30,050 nucleotides of DNA from assembly GCA_021158055.1 (NCBI GenBank), contig JAGGVJ010000023.1, forward strand, positions 1 through 30,050, in the 5' to 3' direction. Shown here one piece after another: positions 1-25,668 of this stretch. Source of the stretch: Candidatus Iainarchaeum sp. Lineage in GTDB: Archaea > Iainarchaeota > Iainarchaeia > JAGGVJ01. Both the position numbers and the translations under genes were made by a program. Positions within the stretch are counted from its first letter, which is position 1, and each line of letters starts with the position of its first letter. The notes beneath the pieces were generated by a model. The model had not been told where the DNA came from and did not search any database. It saw only the letters and a list, made by a program, of their open reading frames with translations.

Positions 1-126
1 AGTGAAACTAACTTCATATCTTTCAGTGAAACTAACTTCATATCTTTCAGTGAAACTAACTTCATATCTTTCAGTGAAACTAACTTCATATCTTTCAGTG
101 AAACTAACTTCATATCTTTCAGTGAA
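1..126. repeat. Perfect tandem repeat, 24-bp unit AGTGAAACTAACTTCATATCTTTC, 5 copies plus a 6-bp partial; may continue left of the window
   Basis: Units at 1, 25, 49, 73 and 97, then AGTGAA at 121-126. No spacers. Overlaps the stop codon of the KaiC-like gene. Confidence 0.97.
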
Positions 127-823
127 GCGACTCCCACATTATCTCGTCTTTTGAGTGAACAGTTACTCCTTTGTCAGTTATGTCAAACGGGTGAACTCTC
201 TTGTCATGGTTTGTGCCGCGCATTTTTCGCACAAAAATTGACCTGTTCGGCGGAACAAAATAAAGCATGACTATCCCGTCAACTGCAAACTCCTCCACCC
301 CGAAAGCAGAATACACGTCTTTTTTACCGTTTGTTTCAGCAGTCAAAAGCGTTGTGCACCCTAGTTTTTTGAGACTTTCGCTTATCTTAAAGATTGTGTG
401 GCGAATCATCTGCTCTTTTTCAAGCCACAAACCAAAAGCAGTAGTCGAATCAATTACAAGGCGCTTTGCGCCCATTTCCTCAACCATCTCCTGTATTTTC
501 TTAAGCTCGTCATCAATCTTGTTGGCAAAAACCGCAGGGTCATACATTCCAAAACGATAAATCTTAAGTTTTTTTTCGGTTTGAAGCTTGGTTATATCCC
601 AGTGAAACCTCTGCATGTTCCACCAAATGTTTGTGGGACCCTCTTCAAGCGTAATGAAAATACCCGGCTCCCCGTAATCTTTTGCACCGTTGTACAAAAA
701 CTGCGTGCAAAAAATCGATTTACCGCAACCCGCACCACCGGAAACAAGCGTTGCACTCCCCTCTAAAAACCCGCCTTCTATAAGCTCGTCCATTCCCGGA
801 ATACCGCTTGGAATTCTCTTCAT
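119..823 (-). CDS. KaiC/RAD55-like RecA-superfamily ATPase, single domain (archaeal type)
   Basis: N-terminal RIPSGIPGMDELIEGG, Walker A GGAGCGKS, TLEE, Walker B LVIDS, GVEEFAVDG and RKMRGTNH motifs; GAAGGTGG upstream of the ATG. Confidence 0.9.
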   Translation of the reverse strand: MKRIPSGIPGMDELIEGGFLEGSATLVSGGAGCGKSIFCTQFLYNGAKDYGEPGIFITLEEGPTNIWWNMQRFHWDITKLQTEKKLKIYRFGMYDPAVFANKIDDELKKIQEMVEEMGAKRLVIDSTTAFGLWLEKEQMIRHTIFKISESLKKLGCTTLLTAETNGKKDVYSAFGVEEFAVDGIVMLYFVPPNRSIFVRKMRGTNHDKRVHPFDITDKGVTVHSKDEIMWESLH

Positions 824-978
824 ACAAAACCACCTTCAATAACCTTTATAACTACTGATATATTTAAGTTATATAATTTCAGTCTAAACAATAAATCATA
901 AAAAGGTAAATGCCTGACAGTATTTATAAGTTTGCGATAATACAAAAAATACAACACTAAAAAATTTTGATGGTCCTC

Positions 979-1929
979 ATGGCACAGGTTAAAAAATCCG
1001 CAAAACAAAAGGCAAAAAAGCCGAAACAAACGCAAACGGATAACAAAACCCTTTTGGAAGATTTAAAAACCGCGCCGGAACAACAGGAATTAACAGGTCA
1101 ACCGACAAAAAAAACCGGTGAAAACCAAACTGAACAAACTGACCCTAAAAAAATAACTTCCGGCAAACAGGAAAACGCAGAAAGCAATGAAAAGAACCCT
1201 GATCTTGTTACAATGATTGACGAGCCAACATGGAAAGTCATACTGTTTGACCTGGTCAAAAAAAACAACTTCAACCCCTGGGACATAAACATTGTCAGCC
1301 TTGCAGACGCTTACATGAACAAAATCCAATCACTGAAAAAATTTGACTTCCACATTCCTGCAAACGCGGTGCTTTGCGCATCCATTCTTCTCCGCATAAA
1401 ATCAGACATTTTCAAAATCGACTTTAAAGAAGAACCCAGTGAAGACCCCGATGCCTCAATGTTCAGCATGTTTGATGATTCGTTTTCAATGGATGAAACC
1501 CTGTTAAATGACCTCACCGAAAACACAAGCGTAGTGCCTCACCTGCATGCTCCGAAAAGAATAACCAAACGCAAAGTCACACTCACAGAACTTGTCGACG
1601 CAATAAACGATGTGCTTCACAGGACAAGACAACCAAGAAAACAACCTGTAAATCTTGAAGACGAACTTGACTTCATGGATTACTTCAATGCAGAAGAAAC
1701 CGAAACAATAGAAGAAAACGTAAAAAACATCTATGAAACAGTGAAAAAAAACGTTGACAACGAAGGACTGACAAATTTTTCGACAATAATTGAATCAAAC
1801 GAACCAGAAGAAAAAGTCTCAAAATTCTTTCCCCTTCTCTACCTCATGAACGACAACAAAATAAACCTGTGGCAGGACGACTTCTTTGGAGAAATATTCA
1901 TAGCGCTGATAGAAAACCAAAAAGCATAA
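979..1929 (+). CDS. scpA: Segregation/condensation protein A (kleisin), with a long low-complexity N-terminus; start could be 967, 970 or 979
   Basis: NPWDINIVSLADAY, ASILLRIKS, RKVTLTELVDAI and C-terminal FFPLLYL...INLWQDDFFGEIFI are typical of ScpA. Confidence 0.9.
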   Translation: MAQVKKSAKQKAKKPKQTQTDNKTLLEDLKTAPEQQELTGQPTKKTGENQTEQTDPKKITSGKQENAESNEKNPDLVTMIDEPTWKVILFDLVKKNNFNPWDINIVSLADAYMNKIQSLKKFDFHIPANAVLCASILLRIKSDIFKIDFKEEPSEDPDASMFSMFDDSFSMDETLLNDLTENTSVVPHLHAPKRITKRKVTLTELVDAINDVLHRTRQPRKQPVNLEDELDFMDYFNAEETETIEENVKNIYETVKKNVDNEGLTNFSTIIESNEPEEKVSKFFPLLYLMNDNKINLWQDDFFGEIFIALIENQKA

Positions 1930-2000
1930 CGGCAAATCAAACCACGCGGGATTCTATTCCAGAAATCCAGACCCGTCAATTCAAATTCGACTTGCAAACG

Positions 2001-3281
2001 GTGATAAGCATCACAAAAGAAAAAAACGCAAAAACGCAAACGCAAAAACTTGCCGGCCTTAAAAAAACACTTGAAGGAAAAATCCTTGAAAGCGTCAATA
2101 AAGAAAAATACCTCAAAATTATCAACATAACAACCAACATCGAAAAACTGAAGCAAAAAGCAAGAAAAAACGGACTTATTTTGCTTCACAAAAAAATACC
2201 CCTGGAAATACCACACATAAGCGGAAAAATAAATCACATAAAAAACATCAGAAAAACATACGAACTGATACAGGAAATAGCTTCAGTAAACGGAATCAAC
2301 CCTGATGAAAAACTGCTCCACAGAACCATGTTCAACTCAGAAACACTTCCGCCGTTGGGAAAAGAATACTGGTGGTTTCTTTTCATCGGGGAAGACACAG
2401 ACAAACCAATCCAGGTAATGTTTCTTGTCTTTCGAAAACACGGAAATCAAATGCTATTCAACAAAAAACACATGGATTTCAAAAATATCAAAAATAACAA
2501 ATTTCAAGGCGTTACTTCTTGCTGGGCATGGGACGGCGAGAAAATGCATGATTTGGGTGACACAAATGCAATCACCACGCTCGACCCAAAACACAATACA
2601 CTAACCAGCAAAATTTCAAACCATGACATTCATTTTAACGGAACCTACCCCAATTTCAAGCTAAAAATCGGTGACGCAATCAACCTGGAAATGACTGAAC
2701 TGAACCAGATAGACAGCAAAGACGCTTACGCGACATTTCTGCCTCCCTTTGGCATCGGGTGGGTGGACATGTTCTCAAAAACAACAGGAACCGTGCTTGG
2801 GAAAAAATTCAAAGGAAAAGCACACCTTCAAAAAGTTGTCGGAGTCACGACCTCCGGATGCTTTAACTGGGGGGAAATCTTCTTTGAAAACGGGTCATCA
2901 TTTACCATTTTCTGCATCAAGCCAAAAAAGAACTCAAAAATTGCCCTTCACACATCCGCCACTTTCTATGACAATCATAAAAAAACAATCACAAAATTTA
3001 ATGACCCGAAAATAGAAATATCCAAAAAAGAACCGGAAAATAAAAATGAAAATATCCAATGGGTAATTCAAGGGGCTGACAACGACAACGAATTCACCCT
3101 CGTGCTGGACACATACAGTAAAAAAGAATTCAACATGAAAACCATTGAATGGCAGACATACATTGAATACCTTGTAACAGCAAAAGAATTCAAGCTCAAA
3201 ACAAAAAGCAAAGAAATTAACTTAAGCAAACTCAGCAAAGGCACGGGAACATTTGAAGATGCCTACGGGTTCATATTCTAA
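2001..3281 (+). CDS. Hypothetical protein: ~100-aa basic N-terminal region plus a beta-rich, possibly AttH/CrtC/tocopherol-cyclase-like domain; paralog of the next gene; start uncertain
   Basis: Long ORF with KEYWWFLF, WAWDGEKMHD, AHLQKV, FNWGEIFFENGS and GTGTFEDAYG matching the downstream gene. The fold assignment is inference. Confidence 0.7.
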   Translation: MISITKEKNAKTQTQKLAGLKKTLEGKILESVNKEKYLKIINITTNIEKLKQKARKNGLILLHKKIPLEIPHISGKINHIKNIRKTYELIQEIASVNGINPDEKLLHRTMFNSETLPPLGKEYWWFLFIGEDTDKPIQVMFLVFRKHGNQMLFNKKHMDFKNIKNNKFQGVTSCWAWDGEKMHDLGDTNAITTLDPKHNTLTSKISNHDIHFNGTYPNFKLKIGDAINLEMTELNQIDSKDAYATFLPPFGIGWVDMFSKTTGTVLGKKFKGKAHLQKVVGVTTSGCFNWGEIFFENGSSFTIFCIKPKKNSKIALHTSATFYDNHKKTITKFNDPKIEISKKEPENKNENIQWVIQGADNDNEFTLVLDTYSKKEFNMKTIEWQTYIEYLVTAKEFKLKTKSKEINLSKLSKGTGTFEDAYGFIF

Positions 3282-3300
3282 AAAATCAAACGGTGATCAC

Positions 3301-4422
3301 TTGTCTGAAAAACAAGACAAAAACAAACAAAACGACATATGTGAAAAAATCTGGGAAATCGACCCGAGCGACAAAAAAACCGGAACCTGGTGGTGGTGGT
3401 TTTGGCTTTTTTTCATTGACAGTGAAAACAACCGGGATAAACCGGAGCAACTCATGGTTCTCTGGTCAACAAAAAACAACCCGAAAATAAAATGCAACGA
3501 CATTGTCATGGAACTCAACAACCAAATCTCACCCCTGAAAGACAAAACCACTTTCAAGGGAGCAGTGGCAGTGTGGTATTTTGACGGGGAAAAAATGCAC
3601 GACAACTACATTCTTGAAAACTGCAACATGACCCTTGACAAAAAAACACGCAGCCTAACATCTGATTCAAAAGACAAAACTGTTTTCCGTGAAAAAGAAG
3701 GCAAATTCACAGTAAATATAAGCAAAGGTGAAAAAAAATTCACCTTCACTTCAAAAACCATGGGCAGTAACAGATTTACTGCCGTCAGCGCAACCAAAAG
3801 CAACTACTTAAAAGGACTGTTCAGCCACGGCATAATAAAGCTGCCGAAAATAGGCTTCGACGGGCTGATAAAAGACACAAACGGAAAACGGGACATAAGC
3901 GGAACAGCATACTTTCAAAAAGTCACAGTCAATGCACCTGTTTCGCCATGGTACTGGGGAATATTCCATTTTGAAGACGGCAGCATACTATCATACTTCA
4001 ATCCGTACATCGGCACAGCGATCCTAAAAGAAAACATTCCCGATTGCCTTGTGCCGTTTGACAGGAAAATCGCTTTGAAAAAAGGGATGTATTTCTTTGA
4101 CAACAAAACAAAAAAACAGCACGTGTTTGAAGGCCTGTCCATAAAAGAACAGACAAACAATCAAAATCAGCCCACATTTAAAATCAGGGGGGAAAACAAA
4201 GATTCAAAAATAGCTTTCACGCTTGACTGCTATTCAAACGCATCCTGGAAATTTGAAAAACCCACGCTTGGACCGGTTAAAACACGGCTGAAATACAACG
4301 AATACCCTGCAAAAATAACGTTTTTTGAACTTTCTTTTAATAAAGAAGAAAAGAAAATCGTATTAAATGACCTGGGAAAAGGAATCGGAAACGTCGAACA
4401 TTCCTGGGGAATCCTAATCTGA
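3301..4422 (+). CDS. Hypothetical Trp-rich protein, possibly AttH/CrtC/tocopherol-cyclase-like beta-barrel; paralog of the upstream gene
   Basis: TTG start after a GGTGA RBS. Motifs TWWWWFWLFF, WYFDGEKMHD, AYFQKV, PWYWGIFHFEDGS, YNEYP and GIGNVEHSWG. Confidence 0.72.
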   Translation: MSEKQDKNKQNDICEKIWEIDPSDKKTGTWWWWFWLFFIDSENNRDKPEQLMVLWSTKNNPKIKCNDIVMELNNQISPLKDKTTFKGAVAVWYFDGEKMHDNYILENCNMTLDKKTRSLTSDSKDKTVFREKEGKFTVNISKGEKKFTFTSKTMGSNRFTAVSATKSNYLKGLFSHGIIKLPKIGFDGLIKDTNGKRDISGTAYFQKVTVNAPVSPWYWGIFHFEDGSILSYFNPYIGTAILKENIPDCLVPFDRKIALKKGMYFFDNKTKKQHVFEGLSIKEQTNNQNQPTFKIRGENKDSKIAFTLDCYSNASWKFEKPTLGPVKTRLKYNEYPAKITFFELSFNKEEKKIVLNDLGKGIGNVEHSWGILI

Positions 4423-9748: not shown

Positions 9749-10288
9749 ATGATTGAAGAAATCACAAACACCGCGGAACTATTACTGACCACGTTAAACA
9801 ATTTCATTGCAGCCAACTTGTTTCAATGGGGAATTGCACTCATAACACTCATAATCGGGTTTTTTGCCATAAAAATCGTAAGAGCTTACGTGAAAAGGTT
9901 TTTCGACAACGTAAACCTTGACAAAACACTTGAGGTATTTATTCAAAAACTCATAAGAGTCTTTTTGTGGATAATACTTGTAATAATTGTTTTGAGCAAC
10001 CTGGGATTTGACGTAACCGGTTTCATTGCAGGGCTTGGAATACTGGGCTTTATTGTCGGCTTTGCAACAAAAGACGTGCTTTCAAACCTTGCAGCCGGCA
10101 TGTTCCTGCTTTTAAACAGGCCTTTTAAAGTGGGGGACGAGATAAAGGCAGCAAAAATAGAGGGAAAAGTCAAAGCAATCGGAACATCAGCATGCATACT
10201 TATCACTGAAAAAAACGAGTACATAACCATACCAAACTCAAAAATATGGGGCGGTCCGATAACAAACCTTTCCCGCCTGAAAAAATAA
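9749..10288 (+). CDS. mscS: Small-conductance mechanosensitive channel, short form without the C-terminal alpha/beta domain
   Basis: TM helices, GFATKDVLSNLAAG, RPFKVGD and IPNSKI. Confidence 0.88.
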   Translation: MIEEITNTAELLLTTLNNFIAANLFQWGIALITLIIGFFAIKIVRAYVKRFFDNVNLDKTLEVFIQKLIRVFLWIILVIIVLSNLGFDVTGFIAGLGILGFIVGFATKDVLSNLAAGMFLLLNRPFKVGDEIKAAKIEGKVKAIGTSACILITEKNEYITIPNSKIWGGPITNLSRLKK

Positions 10289-11963: not shown

Positions 11964-12248
11964 TTATTTTTCTATAAAACACAAAATTTCTCCTTTAAAT
12001 TCAGGGTTAAGAGAATAACGTTTACCGCCAACATTGCTATGATGTGCTAAAACAACACCAATTCTAACTAATTCTTTTAAAACATTTTTAACATTCAATT
12101 TTTTATCAGTTTTAAACTTTCTATTTTTAAAAAGATGGTCATCAATAATTAGACGCCTGCCCCAATAGCCTTGTCTTGCCATTTTTTTAAAAACCCAAGC
12201 AACAATAATTTTTTCATCATTGTTTTCAAAAGTTTTATTGATAATCAT
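11964..12248 (-). CDS. Small basic hypothetical protein, probable winged-helix fold
   Basis: GYWG motif and LKELVRIGVV...RYSLNP wing; AT-rich. Confidence 0.65.
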   Translation of the reverse strand: MIINKTFENNDEKIIVAWVFKKMARQGYWGRRLIIDDHLFKNRKFKTDKKLNVKNVLKELVRIGVVLAHHSNVGGKRYSLNPEFKGEILCFIEK

Positions 12249-12346
12249 TAAACCATTAAGCAGCAGACCGGGTATTTAAAAGTATTGTCCAATATTAATA
12301 CACCAATCATTCAATTAGTGCACATTTAATATTAAAAAAGAATACA

Positions 12347-12371
12347 TTTAAATATGCACATATGTGCATAT
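12347..12371 (+). promoter_or_regulatory. TATA box (TTTAAATA) overlapped by the perfect 20-bp palindrome ATATGCACATATGTGCATAT, a candidate operator
   Basis: Palindrome at 12352-12371 read directly; lies between two divergent small genes; purine-rich BRE-like run upstream. Confidence 0.7.
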
Positions 12372-12444
12372 ACATATACACACATAGTATAAACCATTAT
12401 AATATAAAATTAAAGAAAACAAGTCAAAAAACAAAGGCAAGCAC

Positions 12445-12780
12445 ATGGACAAATCAATTTTCTTAACAATAATGGGCGAGTCGCCTCAGTTAAAAGTGAT
12501 TGACTTTTTAATTGAAAACAGTATTTTTGATTATTCAAAATCAGAAATTTCAAAAGGAGCAAGCATATCCAGAAACACTTTAAATAACATATGGGATCAG
12601 CTAGTTTTTTCCGACATAATCACAAAAACAAGAACTGTAGGAAGAGCAACGTTATATAAGTTGAACACCAAAAACCCCGTTGTTAAAAAATTTATTCAAC
12701 TCGACCAAACACTGACCAGAGAATATGCTGAAAAACTGTCTCAAACCAAAACAGCCATAACACAACCAGTTAAAAACTAA
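12445..12780 (+). CDS. Winged helix-turn-helix transcriptional regulator
   Basis: KVIDFL...FDYSKSEISKGASISRNTL...TRTVGRATLYKLN..NP pattern. Confidence 0.85.
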   Translation: MDKSIFLTIMGESPQLKVIDFLIENSIFDYSKSEISKGASISRNTLNNIWDQLVFSDIITKTRTVGRATLYKLNTKNPVVKKFIQLDQTLTREYAEKLSQTKTAITQPVKN

Positions 12781-13579: not shown

Positions 13580-15421
13580 ATGCCAAACTCTAATACAGAA
13601 AATTACAATACAGAAAACATTATCCTGCTTTCAAAACAAGAATTAACAAAAAAACTTTGGTCAGCCGACCCGCACATCAGGCAATTTCTTAAGAAAAGCA
13701 AAGACCTCCACTGCGCAAGAAACAATTTTTTTGAATATCTAAACGAGCTAGAAAGGCACTACTTCAACATTTTCTCAGACAACCACTTCAAAAACATACA
13801 CATACTGGAAAAAAACAATGCAAAAGAATGCATAAGGGTACTGAAAAACATCATAAGAACCGAAAACGAAAAAATAACAGGGTTCTCTGCACTGAAAAGA
13901 CTATCCGGCCTTGCAAAAGACAAAAACAAGACCCTGCCTAAAATAAGCGAGGGTTTTTTGTGCGAATTTATTTACCTTTTCAAGGGAATTAACGGAAAAT
14001 CAGGCATTCTCCGCCCCATACACAAGGACCCGGACCTGAAAGACGCGAACGAAATCGCAGTCAATCGCTCAAGTTACCTGGACTCATACTCGAAAACAAT
14101 CCAGGAGCATTTTAAAAAATACAAAGACGGGTGCGATGCAGAATTGCTGAAAAGTTCAAAGGCACTTAAAAAAGAAATTCTTGATTACTTTGAATCCACG
14201 GAAAAAGACTGGGAAGACTATTCATGGCAACTCAACCATGTAATCAAAGACAGAAAAACCCTGTCTTCCTTGATCAAACTGAACAAAGATGAAGCAAGCG
14301 GATTAAAGTGCGCTGAAGAAAAAAACATCCCTTTTCAGATAACCCCTTACTACCTTTCACTCTTCAACAAAAACAAAAGGTCTTACCACGACCGCGTCCT
14401 CCGCGCCCAGGTAATCCCAAGCCTTAAGTACTGCTCAGCCATCAAAAAAAACTGTGAATCCGAACTTGATCTGGATTTCATGGGGGAAAAATTCACCAGC
14501 CCAATAAAAAGCATTACAAGGAGATACCCTCAAATACTAATCCTGAAACCGTTTGATTCCTGCCCGCAAATCTGTGTTTACTGCCAGAGAAACTGGGAGA
14601 TAAAAAGCCTTGAGGAAACAAAAACAAACAAAAAAGAAATACAAAAAGCCATTGACTGGATAAAAGACAACGAAAGCATAACAGAAGTTTTGGTAACCGG
14701 CGGGGACCCGCTGACCCTAAACAACAAATACCTGGGGTGGCTGCTTGACGAAATCTCAAAAATAAAACGCGTTGAACGAATAAGAATCGGAACCAGAACA
14801 CTAGTCACTCTCCCTTTCAGATTTGACAAAGAACTGCTGAAAATACTTGAAAAACACCACTGCATCGGCAAAAGAGAGATATGCATCGTAACCCACTTTG
14901 AACATCCAGTGGAAATAACCCCTGACTCGATAAAAGCAATAAAAAAAATAAAAAAACTGGGAATCAGCATTTACAACCAGCAGGTTTTCACATACTACAA
15001 CAGCAAAAAATTTGAAACATCTTTTCTCAGAAAAAAACTAAAACTGTCAGGAATAGACCCTTACTATACATTCAACACAAAAGGAAAAGAAGAAACAATT
15101 GACTTTCGGGTTCCGATTGCAAGAATCGAACAGGAAAGAAAAGAAGAGGCAAGACTCCTGCCCGGCATTGTCCGCACAGACGAGCCCGTCTTCAACGTGC
15201 CAAAACTTGGAAAATCACACTTGAGAGCATGGCAGGACCACGAACCAATCATGGTTTTAAGTAACGGCAAAAGAATCTACCGGTTTTACCCGTGGGAATC
15301 CAAACTCAACCTGACCGATGACTACATTTATACAGACGTGCCAATTTACGACTACTTAAAGAGACTGCACAAAGACAACGAAAACACAAACGATTACCAC
15401 TCAATATGGTACTACTTTTAA
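13580..15421 (+). CDS. KamA-family radical SAM/PLP aminomutase, long form; predicted glutamate 2,3-aminomutase-like
   Basis: ITPYYLSL, RRYP, C328xxxC332xxC335, VTGGDPL, RIGTR, THFEHP, PYYTFNTK(501) and FN(539)VPKLGK(545). Confidence 0.9.
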   Translation: MPNSNTENYNTENIILLSKQELTKKLWSADPHIRQFLKKSKDLHCARNNFFEYLNELERHYFNIFSDNHFKNIHILEKNNAKECIRVLKNIIRTENEKITGFSALKRLSGLAKDKNKTLPKISEGFLCEFIYLFKGINGKSGILRPIHKDPDLKDANEIAVNRSSYLDSYSKTIQEHFKKYKDGCDAELLKSSKALKKEILDYFESTEKDWEDYSWQLNHVIKDRKTLSSLIKLNKDEASGLKCAEEKNIPFQITPYYLSLFNKNKRSYHDRVLRAQVIPSLKYCSAIKKNCESELDLDFMGEKFTSPIKSITRRYPQILILKPFDSCPQICVYCQRNWEIKSLEETKTNKKEIQKAIDWIKDNESITEVLVTGGDPLTLNNKYLGWLLDEISKIKRVERIRIGTRTLVTLPFRFDKELLKILEKHHCIGKREICIVTHFEHPVEITPDSIKAIKKIKKLGISIYNQQVFTYYNSKKFETSFLRKKLKLSGIDPYYTFNTKGKEETIDFRVPIARIEQERKEEARLLPGIVRTDEPVFNVPKLGKSHLRAWQDHEPIMVLSNGKRIYRFYPWESKLNLTDDYIYTDVPIYDYLKRLHKDNENTNDYHSIWYYF

Positions 15422-16043: not shown

Positions 16044-17114
16044 TCAATTGTCCCTGTTGAGATAAATTGTCTGGGTCGGGAACGCCATCTCAATTGCTGC
16101 TTTTTCAAACTGTTCCTTTATGGTAAAATTAATGCTTTGCTGGGTGTCCATGAATTTGTTGTAGTCGCCTGAACTGACAAAGTAAACAACTTCAAAATTC
16201 AAACTGAAATCCCCAAAGTTTTTGAAGTGCGCGCGGCTGAAATCCGCAAGCTCTTCTTTTTCAATAATTTTTTCAACCATTCCGGGAATACTCTTCAGTT
16301 TCTTGACAGGTGTGTCATAAGTGACGCCAAAAGGAAACACAACCCTTCTCTTTTCCATTTTCTTGTAATTATTAACCCTTGCCTCGGTCAATTCCTTGTT
16401 TGAAATGATAAGCTCCTGGCCCTGAAGAGTCTTTATTTTGGTTGATTTTATGCCGATTTCCTTTACTGTCCCGGAATCGGTTCCGACAACAATAAAATCA
16501 CCCACCCTGAAAGGCTTGTTGAAATAAATTGAAAAAGAAGCAAAAATGTCAACCAGAATATTCTGCAATGCAAAAGCAATTGCGATTCCGCCGATTCCAA
16601 GCCCTGCCACAAGAGTCGTAACGTCAAAGCCGATGTTTGAAAGGATAAGCACTGCCGCAACAAACCACAATCCAATTTTCAATGCCTGGTTCAAAAACAA
16701 TATGACTGAATGGTCGGTTTTTTTCTCTTCCTGCTGCCTTTTTTCAATAATTTTTCCGCTGCCGTAATCAATGACTTCGTGAAGCGCTTTCACTGCATAG
16801 AAAACAATTGCAACAATAAGCAAATATTCAATTCCCACACTCACCAATCCGGGAACATTAAGGAACTGAAGTGAAACATACATCGAAACAATGACATAAA
16901 AATACCAGTTTATCCTGTCAATGAAATGAATAAACACGTCATCCAGATCATTTTTGGTTTTCTCAAAAAGAGTCTTCAGCCTGGAAACAACAATGTACTT
17001 GAAAATCTTCATTGCCGAAATCAATACGACAAAAAGCAGAAGGCAAAAAACGTAATCAAAAACAGTGTTTCCGAAAAAAGTACTTGCCATTATTTCAGGG
17101 GAAATCAAATCCAT
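16044..17114 (-). CDS. mscS: MscS-family mechanosensitive channel, full length
   Basis: AGLGIGGIAIAFALQNIL, KPFRVGDFI, FGVTYDT, FGDFSLNFEV and MAFPTQ. Confidence 0.93.
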   Translation of the reverse strand: MDLISPEIMASTFFGNTVFDYVFCLLLFVVLISAMKIFKYIVVSRLKTLFEKTKNDLDDVFIHFIDRINWYFYVIVSMYVSLQFLNVPGLVSVGIEYLLIVAIVFYAVKALHEVIDYGSGKIIEKRQQEEKKTDHSVILFLNQALKIGLWFVAAVLILSNIGFDVTTLVAGLGIGGIAIAFALQNILVDIFASFSIYFNKPFRVGDFIVVGTDSGTVKEIGIKSTKIKTLQGQELIISNKELTEARVNNYKKMEKRRVVFPFGVTYDTPVKKLKSIPGMVEKIIEKEELADFSRAHFKNFGDFSLNFEVVYFVSSGDYNKFMDTQQSINFTIKEQFEKAAIEMAFPTQTIYLNRDN

Positions 17115-18564: not shown

Positions 18565-19818
18565 ATGGCAGGAAATCTAAAGCGATACGAAAAAATTGTT
18601 GGAAAAAAAATCATAAACGAAATATACTCCAAAGTAGACAAGCTTTCGGGAAAGCATATTGTCTGCATCAACTCGACCAACCAGGGAGGGGGGGTTGCAG
18701 AAATACTGAACAGTCTTGTGTTCTTATTCAATGAAACCGGGTTAAGTTTCGGGTGGAGAACCCTGCACGGAACCCCTGACTTTTTTGGGGTCACAAAAAA
18801 GTTCCACAACGCATTGCAGAGCGGGAAAATCCGTCTGTCAGAGAGAAAGAAAAAAGTATATTGCGAGACAAACAGGAGGTTCTCGGCGTTCACGCACATA
18901 AACCACGACCTTGTCATAATCCACGATCCCCAGCCGCTGCCCTTGATTGACTTCTACGAAAAAAAAGAGCCGTGGATATTCAGGTTCCATGTAGACCTGT
19001 CCGACCCCAATCCAAGGCTCTGGAATTACCTGAAAAAATTCGTTGAAAAATACGACCACGTAGTTGTCTCAAAAGAAGAATTCAAAAAAGATGATTTAAA
19101 CGTTCCGCAAAGCGTTATCTGCCCGGCAATAGACCCGCTGAGCTTCAAGAACAAGCCCTTGTCTGCAAAAACCATCAACAAATGCATGACTGCATTCGGG
19201 ATTGACATGAACCGGCCCATAATCTCCCAAGTATCAAGGTTTGACAAGTGGAAATGCCCACTTGACGTAATAACAATTTTTGAGCTGGTCAGGAAAGAAA
19301 TCGACTGCCAACTAATCATGCTCGGGTCGCTTGCAACAGACGACCCTGAAGGCCAGGCGCTGTTTAAAAAAACCGAGAAAAGAATGGAAAAAAGCAAATA
19401 CAAAAAAGACATCAGGTTAATCCTACTTGAAAGCAACATTTTGGCAAACGCCGTGCAACGGGCGTCATCAGTGGTGATACAGAAATCCTCAAAAGAAGGA
19501 TTCGGACTCGTGGTCTCGGAAAGCATGTATAAAGGCACTCCGGTTGTGGCTTCCCGCGTCGGGGGAATCCCCTTGCAGATAATCGACGGAGTCAACGGAT
19601 TCCTGCACGAACCCGAAGACATTAAAGGATTCAGCAAAAGCGTAATCAAACTGATGAAAGACAAAAAGCTGAGGGAAAAATTCGGGAAAAACGGAAAAGA
19701 ACACATAACACGCAATTTTCTTATCACAAGACTGATGCTTGACTGGCTCAACCTGTTTGAAAAATACCTGCTAAAACCAGGCAAGAAAGCTAAAATAAGC
19801 AAAAAGCTGGAAATGTAA
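18565..19818 (+). CDS. treT: GT4 glycosyltransferase, trehalose synthase TreT-like
   Basis: INST.QGGGVAEIL, FF.VTKKFHNALQ, IHDPQP, QVSRFDKWK, DDPEG and QKS.KEGFGLVVSE. Confidence 0.88.
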   Translation: MAGNLKRYEKIVGKKIINEIYSKVDKLSGKHIVCINSTNQGGGVAEILNSLVFLFNETGLSFGWRTLHGTPDFFGVTKKFHNALQSGKIRLSERKKKVYCETNRRFSAFTHINHDLVIIHDPQPLPLIDFYEKKEPWIFRFHVDLSDPNPRLWNYLKKFVEKYDHVVVSKEEFKKDDLNVPQSVICPAIDPLSFKNKPLSAKTINKCMTAFGIDMNRPIISQVSRFDKWKCPLDVITIFELVRKEIDCQLIMLGSLATDDPEGQALFKKTEKRMEKSKYKKDIRLILLESNILANAVQRASSVVIQKSSKEGFGLVVSESMYKGTPVVASRVGGIPLQIIDGVNGFLHEPEDIKGFSKSVIKLMKDKKLREKFGKNGKEHITRNFLITRLMLDWLNLFEKYLLKPGKKAKISKKLEM

Positions 19819-23016: not shown

Positions 23017-25668
23017 TCAATCTGCAAACTCTTTCTTAGGAACAAACCACACAACCGCTTTTGTCAATGCGATGGTCAAAACCCAACCCACTGCAAGCGT
23101 GACAGCAATTGCGGTCCACATTTCAAGTGTCAAAGGCACAACACTGAAAAACTCGCCCAAAGGAGTGTACAAAAGCACAACGTGCAAACCCAGGGCAACA
23201 ATCAAAGCCAGATTCAGCCACTTGTTTGAAAAAAACGGCGTTTTTTCCTGGTGCCTGATTGCGGCAATCAACAACAGCTCATAGAAAACAAGCGCCGTGA
23301 AAACAATTGTCTTTGCCGCTTCAAGGCCGAACAAATTGACTGAAACAAAAAACAATGCAATGAGCAAAAGCCCAATCTTAAACCCAATAATTGCAACCAG
23401 CCACACCAACTGCTTGTTGATTATGTTCTCGCCTGAATCCCTGGGCTTGACTTTCATCACATCCTTTTTCGGCGGGTCGGCGCCCAAAGCAATAGCCGGC
23501 AGGCCGTCAGTTAAAAGGTTTACCCACAGGATCTGAACCGCGCCCAAGGGAAAAAACCCCAGAAAAGACGTGAAAAGCACGAGAATCACTTCTGAAAAAT
23601 TGCAGGTTAAAAGCAGATTTACAAACTTCCTGATATTTGCAAAAATCGTTCTTCCCTCCTTGATCGAAGCAACAACGTCTGAAAAATCGTCGTCAAGTAT
23701 AATCATGTCAGCAGAACACTTTGCAACATCTGTTCCGCGAATACCCATTGCAACCCCGACTTCCGCCATCTTCAAAGCAGGAACATCGTTTACGCCGTCA
23801 CCGGTCATCACAACGCGATGGCCGCTCGCCTGAAGCAACTTCAAAATCCTGACTTTGTGAGACGGGGAAAGCCTTGCAAAAACATTGACTTTGGGAAGCA
23901 GATCCGAAAACTCGCTGTCAGACAACAGGTCAATTTCGTTTCCGTCAAGAGCGACTGTTCCGATACCCACCCTTTCCGCAACCACTTTAGCAGTGAGCTT
24001 GTTGTCCCCGGTCAGCATTATGACCCTGATTCCCGCAGAATGCGCGAGCTTGACTGCCCCGGGCACATCTTGTCTCGGCGGGTCCATCATGGCCTGGAGC
24101 CCCAAAAACACAAGGCCGTTTTCCGCAGCAGAATCATTTGAAATACCCGCAACTTTCCTTGAGGCAAAAGCAAGGACCCTAAGCGACTGCAAAGCAAACT
24201 CATCGCTTTTCCCTAAAATTTCCTTTCGCCTGCTTTCAGAAAGCAAAACCTCTCGTCCGTCAACCAATACTTTGTTGCACCGGCTCAAGATAACTTCCGG
24301 AGCGCCCTTAACAAAAGAAATCTTAAAGTCCCTGAAACCACAAATCACACTCATACGCTTTCTCTCCGAAGAAAACGAAAACTCCTTCAACCTCTGCTTT
24401 TGAGCCCTAAGTTCCCTGACATCAATTCCCGCTTTTGCTGCAACATCCAAAAGGCTGGTCTCTGTGGGGTCACCGATCAGACCTTCTTTCCCGTCAAAAG
24501 AAATGCCGTCGTAAGCATTGTTGCATAAGACACCGCACTCCAAAAGCCCGATCATCTCCCTTAAACCGACAGCATTACCGTCTGAAAGAAAATGCCTGTC
24601 AACGACATCAATTGTTTTTCCGTTAAAAAAAAGTTTCTGGATAACCATCTTATTCTCTGTTATCGTGCCTGTTTTGTCAGTGCAGATCACATCAACAGAA
24701 CCCAGTGTCTCAACAACGGGAAGGCGCCGGACAACCGCGTTTTTCCTGACCATCCTTTGCGTGCCGACTGCAAGCGCAAACGTCACGACCGCAGGAAGCC
24801 CCTCCGGAATGGCTGCCACCGCCAGGCTGATTGAAACCATAAAAACATTCAGGAGATAACCCGCCTCCAGAAATTTTTCGCTGTAAAAAACAAACTGGAC
24901 CAGAACAATAAGCACGACCAAACCCGCTAATCCAAAGCCGATCTTTTTGCCGAGAGTGTTTATTTCAACCTGAAAAGACGCGGGTTTTTGTTCTGTCCTG
25001 TTAACTTCCTCTGCAATGGAACCCACTTCAGTTTTCATGCCCGTCGCGACAACAACAGCCATTCCGGAACCGCGAAGCACATTTGTGCCCATGAACACCA
25101 TGTTGGCCCGCTCGGCAAGGCAAGCGTCTTCAAAAATAACCCTTTCATGCTTGTTTGAGCCCATGCTTTCCCCGGTAAGAGCCGACTCGTCAACCTTTAA
25201 ATCAACTGCCTCAATTATCCGTGCGTCTGCAGGAATAGCTTCCCCTTCCCCGAAAACAATTATGTCTCCCGGAACCAGCTTGCCTGCATCAACAACCATT
25301 TCCCTGTCGTCCCGGATAACAACAGCACGCTTCACAATCATTTTTTTAAGCGCTTCAATGCTTTTTTCCGCACGGTAATCCTGCACAAAACCAAAAACAC
25401 CGTTTATGAAAACAATTGCCGCAATCAGGCACGTGTCAATCATGTGCCCCGCAATAAAAGACACGACTGCCGCCGCAATCAAAATAAGTACCAAAAAATT
25501 CCTGAACTGGGAAAGAAAGATCTTAACCGCACTTGGACCTTGTTTTTCTTCAAGCACGTTCAACCCGTATTTTTTCAGCCTTGAAGCTGATTCAAACAAC
25601 GAAAGCCCCTGTTTTGAAGTTTCAAGTTCTTTAAATATCCTGTCAACAGACTTTATGTGCCATTTCAT
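23017..25668 (-). CDS. Cation-transporting P-type ATPase, type IIA (Ca2+-like)
   Basis: TGES, PEGLP, DKTGT, KGAPE, TGD, GDGVND and NLLTDGLPA. Confidence 0.95.

Follow-up and report, generated by a model that had tools for sequence, protein, structure and literature searches.

Which amino acid is rearranged by a long radical S-adenosylmethionine (SAM) enzyme encoded near the middle of a contig from the archaeon Candidatus Iainarchaeum sp. is the question raised by this locus (GenBank assembly GCA_021158055.1, contig JAGGVJ010000023.1, positions 1 to 30,050 of the forward strand; this whole stretch of 30,050 nucleotides is referred to as the window). A preliminary description of the gene, made from the sequence alone, had assigned its product to the KamA family and proposed a glutamate-specific enzyme making beta-glutamate. 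Clostridium subterminale lysine 2,3-aminomutase (LAM) binds lysine through Asp293 and Asp330, and carries pyridoxal 5'-phosphate (PLP) on Lys337. A glutamate 2,3-aminomutase (Eam) from Clostridioides difficile was reportedly described by Ruzicka and Frey in 2007, and an N-terminally extended one from Methanococcus maripaludis C7, with an extension of ~160 aa, is said to have been reported by Tunckanat et al. in 2022 (Biochemistry 61:1077), its function being reportedly predicted from the pocket residues and confirmed when beta-glutamate was detected upon its expression in a methanogen. According to a citing sentence, glutamate 2,3-aminomutase serves glutamate fermentation in bacteria and production of the osmolyte beta-glutamate in archaea. 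As described below, the gene in the window probably encodes a long-form glutamate 2,3-aminomutase of the methanogen type, which would make beta-glutamate. The enzyme type is not new, being already in print for a methanogen; judging from the sequence comparisons, it is reasonably probable that what is new here is a DPANN member of the long-form glutamate 2,3-aminomutases.

A long-form member of the KamA family

The gene (Table 1) is an uninterrupted open reading frame (ORF) encoding 613 residues plus a stop, with an ATG start and no internal stops, and its G+C content (0.398) is typical of the window (0.411). In an NCBIfam scan of the 613-aa protein, the KamA-family model TIGR00238 aligned at its positions 2–331 to residues 199–544 with 307.9 bits over a cut-off of 199.2 (E = 6.9e-92, far beyond chance); in a profile search of the genome the score was 309.7 bits, and the gene was the sole KamA-family gene there. 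The Pfam matches above cut-off were Radical_SAM and Fer4_12 alone, and the LAM_C domain (PF12544) gave no match at E up to 0.1 in the Pfam scan of the protein. By sequence, the sole solved relative is C. subterminale LAM (PDB ID: 2a5h; E = 3.7e-40 in the single-sequence search and 2.5e-51 in the profile search), and the same structure came first in a Foldseek search with the full-length AlphaFold model (E = 1.5e-15; 308 columns; 30% identity). The protein is thus a member of the KamA family, as initially assigned, and carries the cluster motif.

A string search located CPQICVYC at residues 328–335, PYYTFNTK at 494–501, and FNVPKLGK at 538–545, with spacings of 38 residues from K501 to N539 and of 6 from N539 to K545; the residue numbers and spacings given for the three motifs in the preliminary description were exact. 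The final Cys of the protein is C435, so that it lacks the Cys cluster that LAM-type proteins have at the C-terminus. Every equivalog model scored in the NCBIfam scan fell short of its cut-off; the best match was to the glutamate 2,3-aminomutase (Eam) model TIGR04368 (261.2 bits against 650; 261.9 in a further search), followed by AblA (TIGR03820, 206.7 against 525.4), arginine 2,3-aminomutase (TIGR04468, 160 against 600), and EpmB, the elongation factor P (EF-P) beta-lysylation protein (TIGR03821, 134.1 against 369.3).

Pocket residues of the glutamate type

Two sets of short forms were used for comparison of the pocket: LAM-type proteins (e.g., the ORFs in the loci L086 and L087, and P0215), and six Eam-like proteins, the best NCBIfam match of which is the glutamate 2,3-aminomutase model at 488–590 bits, all below its cut-off of 650. 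The LAM-type proteins read PYYLYQCD ... V-x-D-A-P-G-G-G-G-K, with D..37..D..7..K in the L086 and L087 ORFs, which bears out the spacing of 37 and 7 previously given for LAM. The Eam-like short forms read PYYxFHxK ... V-N-A-P-G-G-L-G-K, with K332, N369, and K376 being invariant and also 37 and 7 residues apart.

In the phmmer and hmmsearch alignments to 2a5h, PYYTFNTK lies over PYYIYQCD, placing K501 on the lysine-binding Asp293. With hhalign, a profile of 18 aligned long forms (A1) matched the Eam-like profile with E = 8.4e-67 over 339 columns (query 160–516; K501 opposite Lys), and the LAM-type profile with E = 4.7e-58 over 295 columns (query 206–516; K501 opposite Asp); the long-form profile is therefore nearer to the Eam-like short forms. 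A MAFFT alignment of 71 rows also has K501 in the column of LAM Asp293, in which the Eam-like short forms have Lys as well. With the three approaches in agreement, the residue at the Asp293 position of the window protein is Lys, not Asp, as had been read by eye.

The placement of the two other pocket residues is less firm. Because the HMMER alignment to 2a5h and the hhalign profile alignments end at residue 515–516 (the TIGR00238 model aligns through 544), N539 and K545 are matched through the common motif x-x-[D/N]-x-P...G-K and through MAFFT, in which K545 falls in the column of the PLP-binding Lys and N539 misses the D/N column by one gap column. Of the earlier by-eye assignment of these two residues to Asp330 and Lys337, the part concerning K545 is thus borne out by the MAFFT column, and that concerning N539 is approximate by one column. 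It is probable that N539 is the counterpart of LAM Asp330 and of the Eam-like Asn, and that K545 is the PLP-binding lysine. R337, located right after the cluster motif, is in the MAFFT column of the post-motif Arg of LAM-type enzymes, which in LAM binds the free alpha-carboxylate; the Eam-like proteins also read CQR at this site. K501, N539, K545, R337, and the three Cys of the cluster motif are invariant in all 18 long forms of A1, and the K/N/K set is found in 22 of the 22 catalytically intact long forms used in the phylogenetic tree described below.

A lysine 2,3-aminomutase of the AblA/KamA or EpmB type would agree with the Joint Genome Institute (JGI) label 'lysine 2,3-aminomutase' carried by many homologues, and with LAM being the only solved relative. 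Such a function is most improbable, however, in view of the Lys that replaces Asp at the Asp293 position and of the AblA and EpmB scores, which are far under their cut-offs. Furthermore, the beta-lysine acetyltransferase gene ablB, the absence of which from the vicinity had been pointed out earlier, was found neither in the window nor in the rest of the 94.9%-complete genome, and two other genomes (G031 and G032) carry a LAM-type gene as well as the long form, which argues for different functions of the two. A glutamate-type rather than a lysine-type 2,3-aminomutase, as originally suggested, is accordingly best supported by the Lys at the Asp293 position, the K/N/K set as in the Eam-like proteins, and the hhalign E-values given above.

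Proposed reaction and its significance

From the comparison with LAM and Eam we infer the substrate and product of the enzyme, the roles of N539 and K545, the physiological role and, as discussed in a later section, a function of the extra domains; the reaction is modelled on the established LAM mechanism. C328, C332, and C335 would hold a [4Fe-4S] cluster, at which reductive cleavage of SAM would yield the 5'-deoxyadenosyl radical. PLP, resting on K545, would form an external aldimine with L-glutamate, whose alpha-carboxylate would be bound by R337 and gamma-carboxylate by K501 with the assistance of N539; K501 and N539 would then stand in for the two LAM aspartates that hold the epsilon-ammonium group of lysine. 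The radical would take a hydrogen from C3, the amino group would migrate from C2 to C3 via an aziridinyl radical, and return of the hydrogen would give beta-glutamate. For a DPANN archaeon of marine type, the most likely use of the product is that of an anionic compatible solute that is metabolically inert and is made in one step from glutamate, which the glutamate dehydrogenase encoded elsewhere in the genome can supply.

If this assignment is true, a single gene lets a metabolically poor, host-dependent archaeon of a saline habitat make a compatible solute from glutamate, and the methanogen-type glutamate 2,3-aminomutase extends to DPANN archaea and many anaerobic bacteria. In most sources such genes are labelled only 'KamA family' or, incorrectly, 'lysine 2,3-aminomutase'. 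The practical gain would be improved annotation of a very large family.

The long clade and its relation to known aminomutases

Among 8000 scored candidates, a homologue search yielded 4937 relatives at E ≤0.001. The 120 matches listed are 577–637 aa long and 58–70% identical at 95–100% query coverage, and their source names include Methanocella, Diapherotrites, Micrarchaeia, Woesearchaeota, Nanoarchaeota, Thermoplasmatales, Syntrophales, Bacteroidales, Lentisphaeria, and KSB1. At least 599 stretches in species-representative genomes matched the search patterns, and at least 572 of them encode a relative, the hosts being anaerobic archaea and bacteria. Of the 50%-identity representatives, which were searched exhaustively, 3024 matched at E ≤0.001, including full-length long forms down to ~27% identity, several fusions, and some copies without the cluster cysteines.

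For the phylogenetic tree, 59 of the 71 aligned rows (22 long and 37 short forms) were used, leaving out nine rows without an intact cluster motif, P0243 with a frameshifted-looking C-terminus, and the divergent P0127 and P0145. The 22 long forms make up one group with a Shimodaira–Hasegawa approximate likelihood ratio test (SH-aLRT) value of 100, on a long branch apart from all 37 short forms; among the latter, the position of the Eam-like group next to the LAM-type group is weakly supported. The long forms thus share the pocket signature of glutamate enzymes but branch off deeply by themselves, and are not a subgroup of them. In nine long-clade relatives (P0138, P0139, P0142, P0147, P0210, P0217, P0184, P0185, and P0199), the cysteines of CxxxCxxC are lost, often together with the PLP lysine, while the architecture is kept; these may be non-catalytic paralogues. 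A fusion is seen in L094 (G182:C76), where an ORF at 1486–4209 (minus strand) has a frame of ~908 aa with an N-terminal region of ~500 residues joined to an Eam-like core; the core scores 607.7 bits on TIGR04368, and has Lys at the Asp293 position and Thr in place of the Eam-like Asn.

The long form has the fold, the cluster motif, the post-motif Arg, and the class of PLP-Lys motif in common with LAM (2A5H; AblA model TIGR03820), but has Lys and Asn for the two lysine-binding Asp residues, and lacks the Zn/Cys C-terminal domain and a partner ablB. With bacterial Eam (TIGR04368) it shares the Lys/Asn/Lys positions, the CQR sequence after the cluster motif, and the N-terminal helices corresponding to query residues 160–205; it differs in having ~155 extra N-terminal residues and neither a LAM_C domain nor a C-terminal Cys, in its loop (VPKLGK with the 38/6 spacing, whereas the Eam-like proteins have APGGLGK with 37/7), in its score of 261 bits against the cut-off of 650, and in forming a separate deep clade. 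The long enzyme from the methanogen is reportedly of the same KamA-family radical SAM/PLP type in an archaeal host, with a long N-terminal extension, the same glutamate-type residues replacing the lysine-binding aspartates, and beta-glutamate as the proposed product for salt tolerance; the window protein has an N-terminal extension of the size (~160 aa) recounted for that enzyme. The present host differs, being a DPANN archaeon with a small genome and not a methanogen. In the control genome of Methanocaldococcus jannaschii, a KamA-family match was found that reached the Eam model at E of 1e-45 but not at 1e-60, with no match to the AblA model at 1e-45; the window protein (P0001) shows the same ordering (2.0e-78 for the Eam model and 7.3e-62 for the AblA model). 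No Methanococcales name appeared among the clusters of 20 long-form representatives, nor among the 120 matches listed for the AT-rich representative P0135. In the beta-glutamate literature searched, we found no paper directly describing the long form, and neither MJ0634 nor MmarC7 1783 in the full text.

Several observations weigh against the assignment as a glutamate enzyme. As a deep branch of its own, the long clade is not nested within the Eam-like short forms, and the pocket Lys that they share could be ancestral or convergent. On the Eam equivalog the window protein attains 261 bits of the required 650; in 151 genomes of one bacterial phylum, that of G031, none of which has an Eam above the 650-bit cut-off, LAM-type proteins score 420–520 bits on TIGR04368 and long forms 205–260, which places the long clade overall further from Eam than LAM is. 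Residues 517–545, including N539 and K545, are outside the HMMER and hhalign alignments, and in a part of low confidence in the full-length AlphaFold2 (AF2) model, in which the predicted local distance difference test (pLDDT) value is <50 over residues 496–552, too low to judge the pocket. The orthology with the M. maripaludis enzyme is one that we infer from a comparison by description only. According to a 2005 review, early nuclear magnetic resonance work excluded that methanogens obtain beta-glutamate through a glutamate aminomutase, and a hydroxyglutaryl-coenzyme A (CoA) route is proposed there instead. With regard to cofactor supply, PdxS and SAM synthetase were not found in the 94.9%-complete genome, the latter with both the archaeal (PF01941) and the bacterial (PF02773) models; a SAM synthetase gene may be in the missing part of the genome or very divergent, or SAM may be imported. 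Finally, the gene context is mostly unconserved over 79 sources and sometimes catabolic, and in ~12–15 related Syntrophales loci the gene is located between gcvPB and lipA, as described in the section on the gene neighbourhood.

Additional N- and C-terminal domains

In the phmmer alignment, residue 12 of LAM corresponds to residue 206 of the window protein, and the core starts near residue 206 in comparison with LAM and near 160 in comparison with the Eam-like proteins. As the hhalign match shows residues 160–205 to be common with the N-terminal helices of the Eam-like short forms, ~155 N-terminal residues are specific to the long clade. The N-terminal domain is conserved over 46 long forms (22–52% identity to that of the window), and an AF2 model of the N-terminal 194 residues alone, built with 46 sequences, is all-helical with 11 helices (pLDDT, 87.4); the extension is likewise all-helical in the full-length model. 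The helical N-terminal extension of ~190 aa noticed beforehand is therefore real. In the PDB, no convincing fold match to this domain was found (best Foldseek E of 1.0); the best VIA-align hit (Z-score, 5.2; root-mean-squared deviation, 4.0; 90 aligned residues) was generically helical.

In the 18 aligned long forms, many residues of the N- and C-terminal regions are also invariant. This conservation, together with the unusually strong full-length identity (58–70%) between archaea and bacteria among the 120 matches listed, the two extra domains without a known fold, and the Syntrophales gene order with glycine-cleavage and lipoyl synthase genes, would suit an enzyme whose substrate is a protein or peptide residue or else a carrier-bound amino acid, with the macromolecule being docked by the extra domains. 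We regard this as improbable, as no partner gene is conserved over the 79 sources and the post-motif Arg of LAM-type enzymes is retained (R337); moreover, we know of no KamA-family member that acts on a protein-bound residue.

For the preferred glutamate 2,3-aminomutase, the two extra domains of the long clade, the helical one at the N-terminus and the one at the C-terminus, probably take the place that the Zn/Cys C-terminal domain has in LAM, serving in oligomer formation or in regulation. A more speculative and rather unlikely idea is that the N-terminal domain acts as a built-in sensor of ionic strength or potassium that turns on beta-glutamate synthesis post-translationally. In that case, small-genome DPANN archaea to which this one gene had been transferred would possess osmoprotection by a single enzyme that regulates itself and draws directly on glutamate.

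Gene neighbourhood

Table 1. Positions of the aminomutase gene, its parts, and nearby features in the window
Feature	Positions	Strand	Basis
Long-form KamA-family radical SAM/PLP aminomutase, probable glutamate 2,3-aminomutase	13580..15421	+	ORF; TIGR00238; 2a5h match
N-terminal helical domain, residues 1–205	13580..14194	+	Conservation in long forms, AF2 model, hhalign
Radical SAM motif C328-x3-C332-x2-C335, then Q336-R337	14561..14584	+	String position, invariance, column comparison
PYYTFNTK motif, residues 494–501; K501 at the LAM Asp293 position	15059..15082	+	HMMER, hhalign, invariance
FNVPKLGK motif, residues 538–545; N539 probable Asp330 counterpart, K545 probable PLP lysine	15191..15214	+	MAFFT, invariance
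C-terminal domain of the long clade, residues 546–613, SIWYYF end, Cys-free	15215..15418	+	Strong conservation in 18 long forms
Upstream intergenic region, 91 bases, two copies of TTTTTATATAA	13489..13579	+	Printed sequence
MscS-type mechanosensitive channel, two genes downstream, convergent	16044..17114	-	Pfam MS_channel_1st, MS_channel_2nd, MS_channel_3rd
Second MscS-like gene, 179 aa, without the C-terminal domain	9749..10288	+	Pfam scan of the window
TreT-type trehalose synthase	18565..19818	+	Pfam scan of the window
P-type cation ATPase	23017..25668	-	Pfam scan of the window

In the window, the upstream neighbour of the aminomutase gene is an HD-domain hydrolase gene, and downstream follow a convergent flavin-reductase-like gene and the genes of MscS, TFB, and the TreT-type trehalose synthase. 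The two TTTTTATATAA copies could be candidate archaeal TATA boxes and thus belong to a promoter of the gene's own. The MscS gene two genes downstream is possibly tied to the aminomutase in function, i.e., in solute release, and TreT, the two MscS-like genes, and the P-type cation ATPase, all within 10 kb, look like a loose osmoadaptation neighbourhood. Just upstream of the HD-hydrolase/aminomutase pair, a stretch of low G+C at 11964–12780 contains two small ORFs of 94 and 111 aa that gave no Pfam match; their G+C contents are 0.27 and 0.32, compared with 0.41 for the window.

For comparison of contexts, 995 ORFs from 80 related loci and the window were clustered; the aminomutase gene was called in 79 of these 81 sources (all except L024 and L071), and no partner gene common across lineages was found in the 79. 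An MscS cluster is within three genes of the long form in five of them (two Bacteroidales, two Micrarchaeota, and the window), and in one Micrarchaeota locus the order is Na/H exchanger, long-form gene, and MscS. Beside the LAM-type (AblA-like) gene of L087, from a Methanocella genome, an MscS-like channel gene is located directly upstream (54–1190, plus strand), paralleling the proximity of MscS to the long form. A Pfam scan of 43 same-strand immediate neighbours, one per protein cluster, included Na/H exchanger, CitMHS, ZIP, and FeoB transporters, aminotransferases, and GNAT. Altogether, the context fits an enzyme that would work alone on a free metabolite.

Genes of glycine cleavage and lipoylation are found near the aminomutase gene in a set of related Syntrophales/delta-proteobacterial metagenome-assembled genomes (MAGs); 15 of the sources have GcvP subunits, 12 have LipA, and 10 have GcvT. 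In such loci (including L008, L012–L014, L016, L017, L020, L022, L023, L026, L033, and L067), which represent one lineage among the loci seen, the gene has gcvPB and lipA as its immediate neighbours on either side; gcvT is located upstream and, in some loci, lpd downstream.

Other bacterial neighbours have a catabolic appearance: a CoA-transferase, an enoyl-CoA hydratase, a class-III aminotransferase, a B12 aminomutase subunit, and a 2,4-diaminopentanoate dehydrogenase-like gene. These genes count against a role in osmolyte synthesis, and would fit a 2,3-aminomutase acting on glutamate or on a similar acidic amino acid (e.g., 2-aminoadipate) with a catabolic or general metabolic role, such as feeding or draining the degradation of beta-amino acids. 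The fermentation role given to the bacterial enzyme in the citing sentence and the fact that most homologues named among the matches listed come from non-halophilic anaerobic lineages point in the same direction. We nevertheless consider this role unlikely for the window gene, though less so than the other alternatives, because the window has no such catabolic partner, its neighbours being MscS, TreT, and the cation ATPase, because each catabolic context is limited to a few related loci, and because the genome is small, with few amino-acid pathways in the checks made. The osmotic flavour is thus found in the window and a few other loci, and a catabolic role is possible in some bacteria.

Host genome

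The host genome is 1.15 Mb in 45 contigs and 94.9% complete. The best named relatives of the TFB encoded in the window are in Diapherotrites and Micrarchaeota MAGs (70–76% identity), so that the host is an archaeon of DPANN type. Two sequencing runs containing the stretch are labelled hydrothermal vent metagenome and may be its source; none of the runs listed as containing it is an RNA run. Along with the glutamate dehydrogenase gene mentioned above, glutamine synthetase was looked for, and was not found in the 94.9%-complete genome.

The long form was not found in the 30 class-level relatives searched, 16 of which are ≥90% complete, and occurs in other DPANN MAGs; this patchy distribution suggests that the gene was likely gained by transfer. 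The only KamA-family genes found in the class-level relatives are those of G024 and G030 (L003 and L004), which are short forms of ~370 aa with 35% identity; Arg occupies their Asp293 position (PYYxFQCR), and they carry an HxxGK motif, which makes for another type of pocket.

In the preliminary description, an O2-sensitive radical SAM enzyme was thought to be unexpected in a probably reduced genome. This does not hold, as the genome has 24 Radical_SAM matches. Six of these are located within ~8 kb on one contig (G000:C28:46257-54174), and the cluster may be, for example, a locus for peptide or cofactor maturation.

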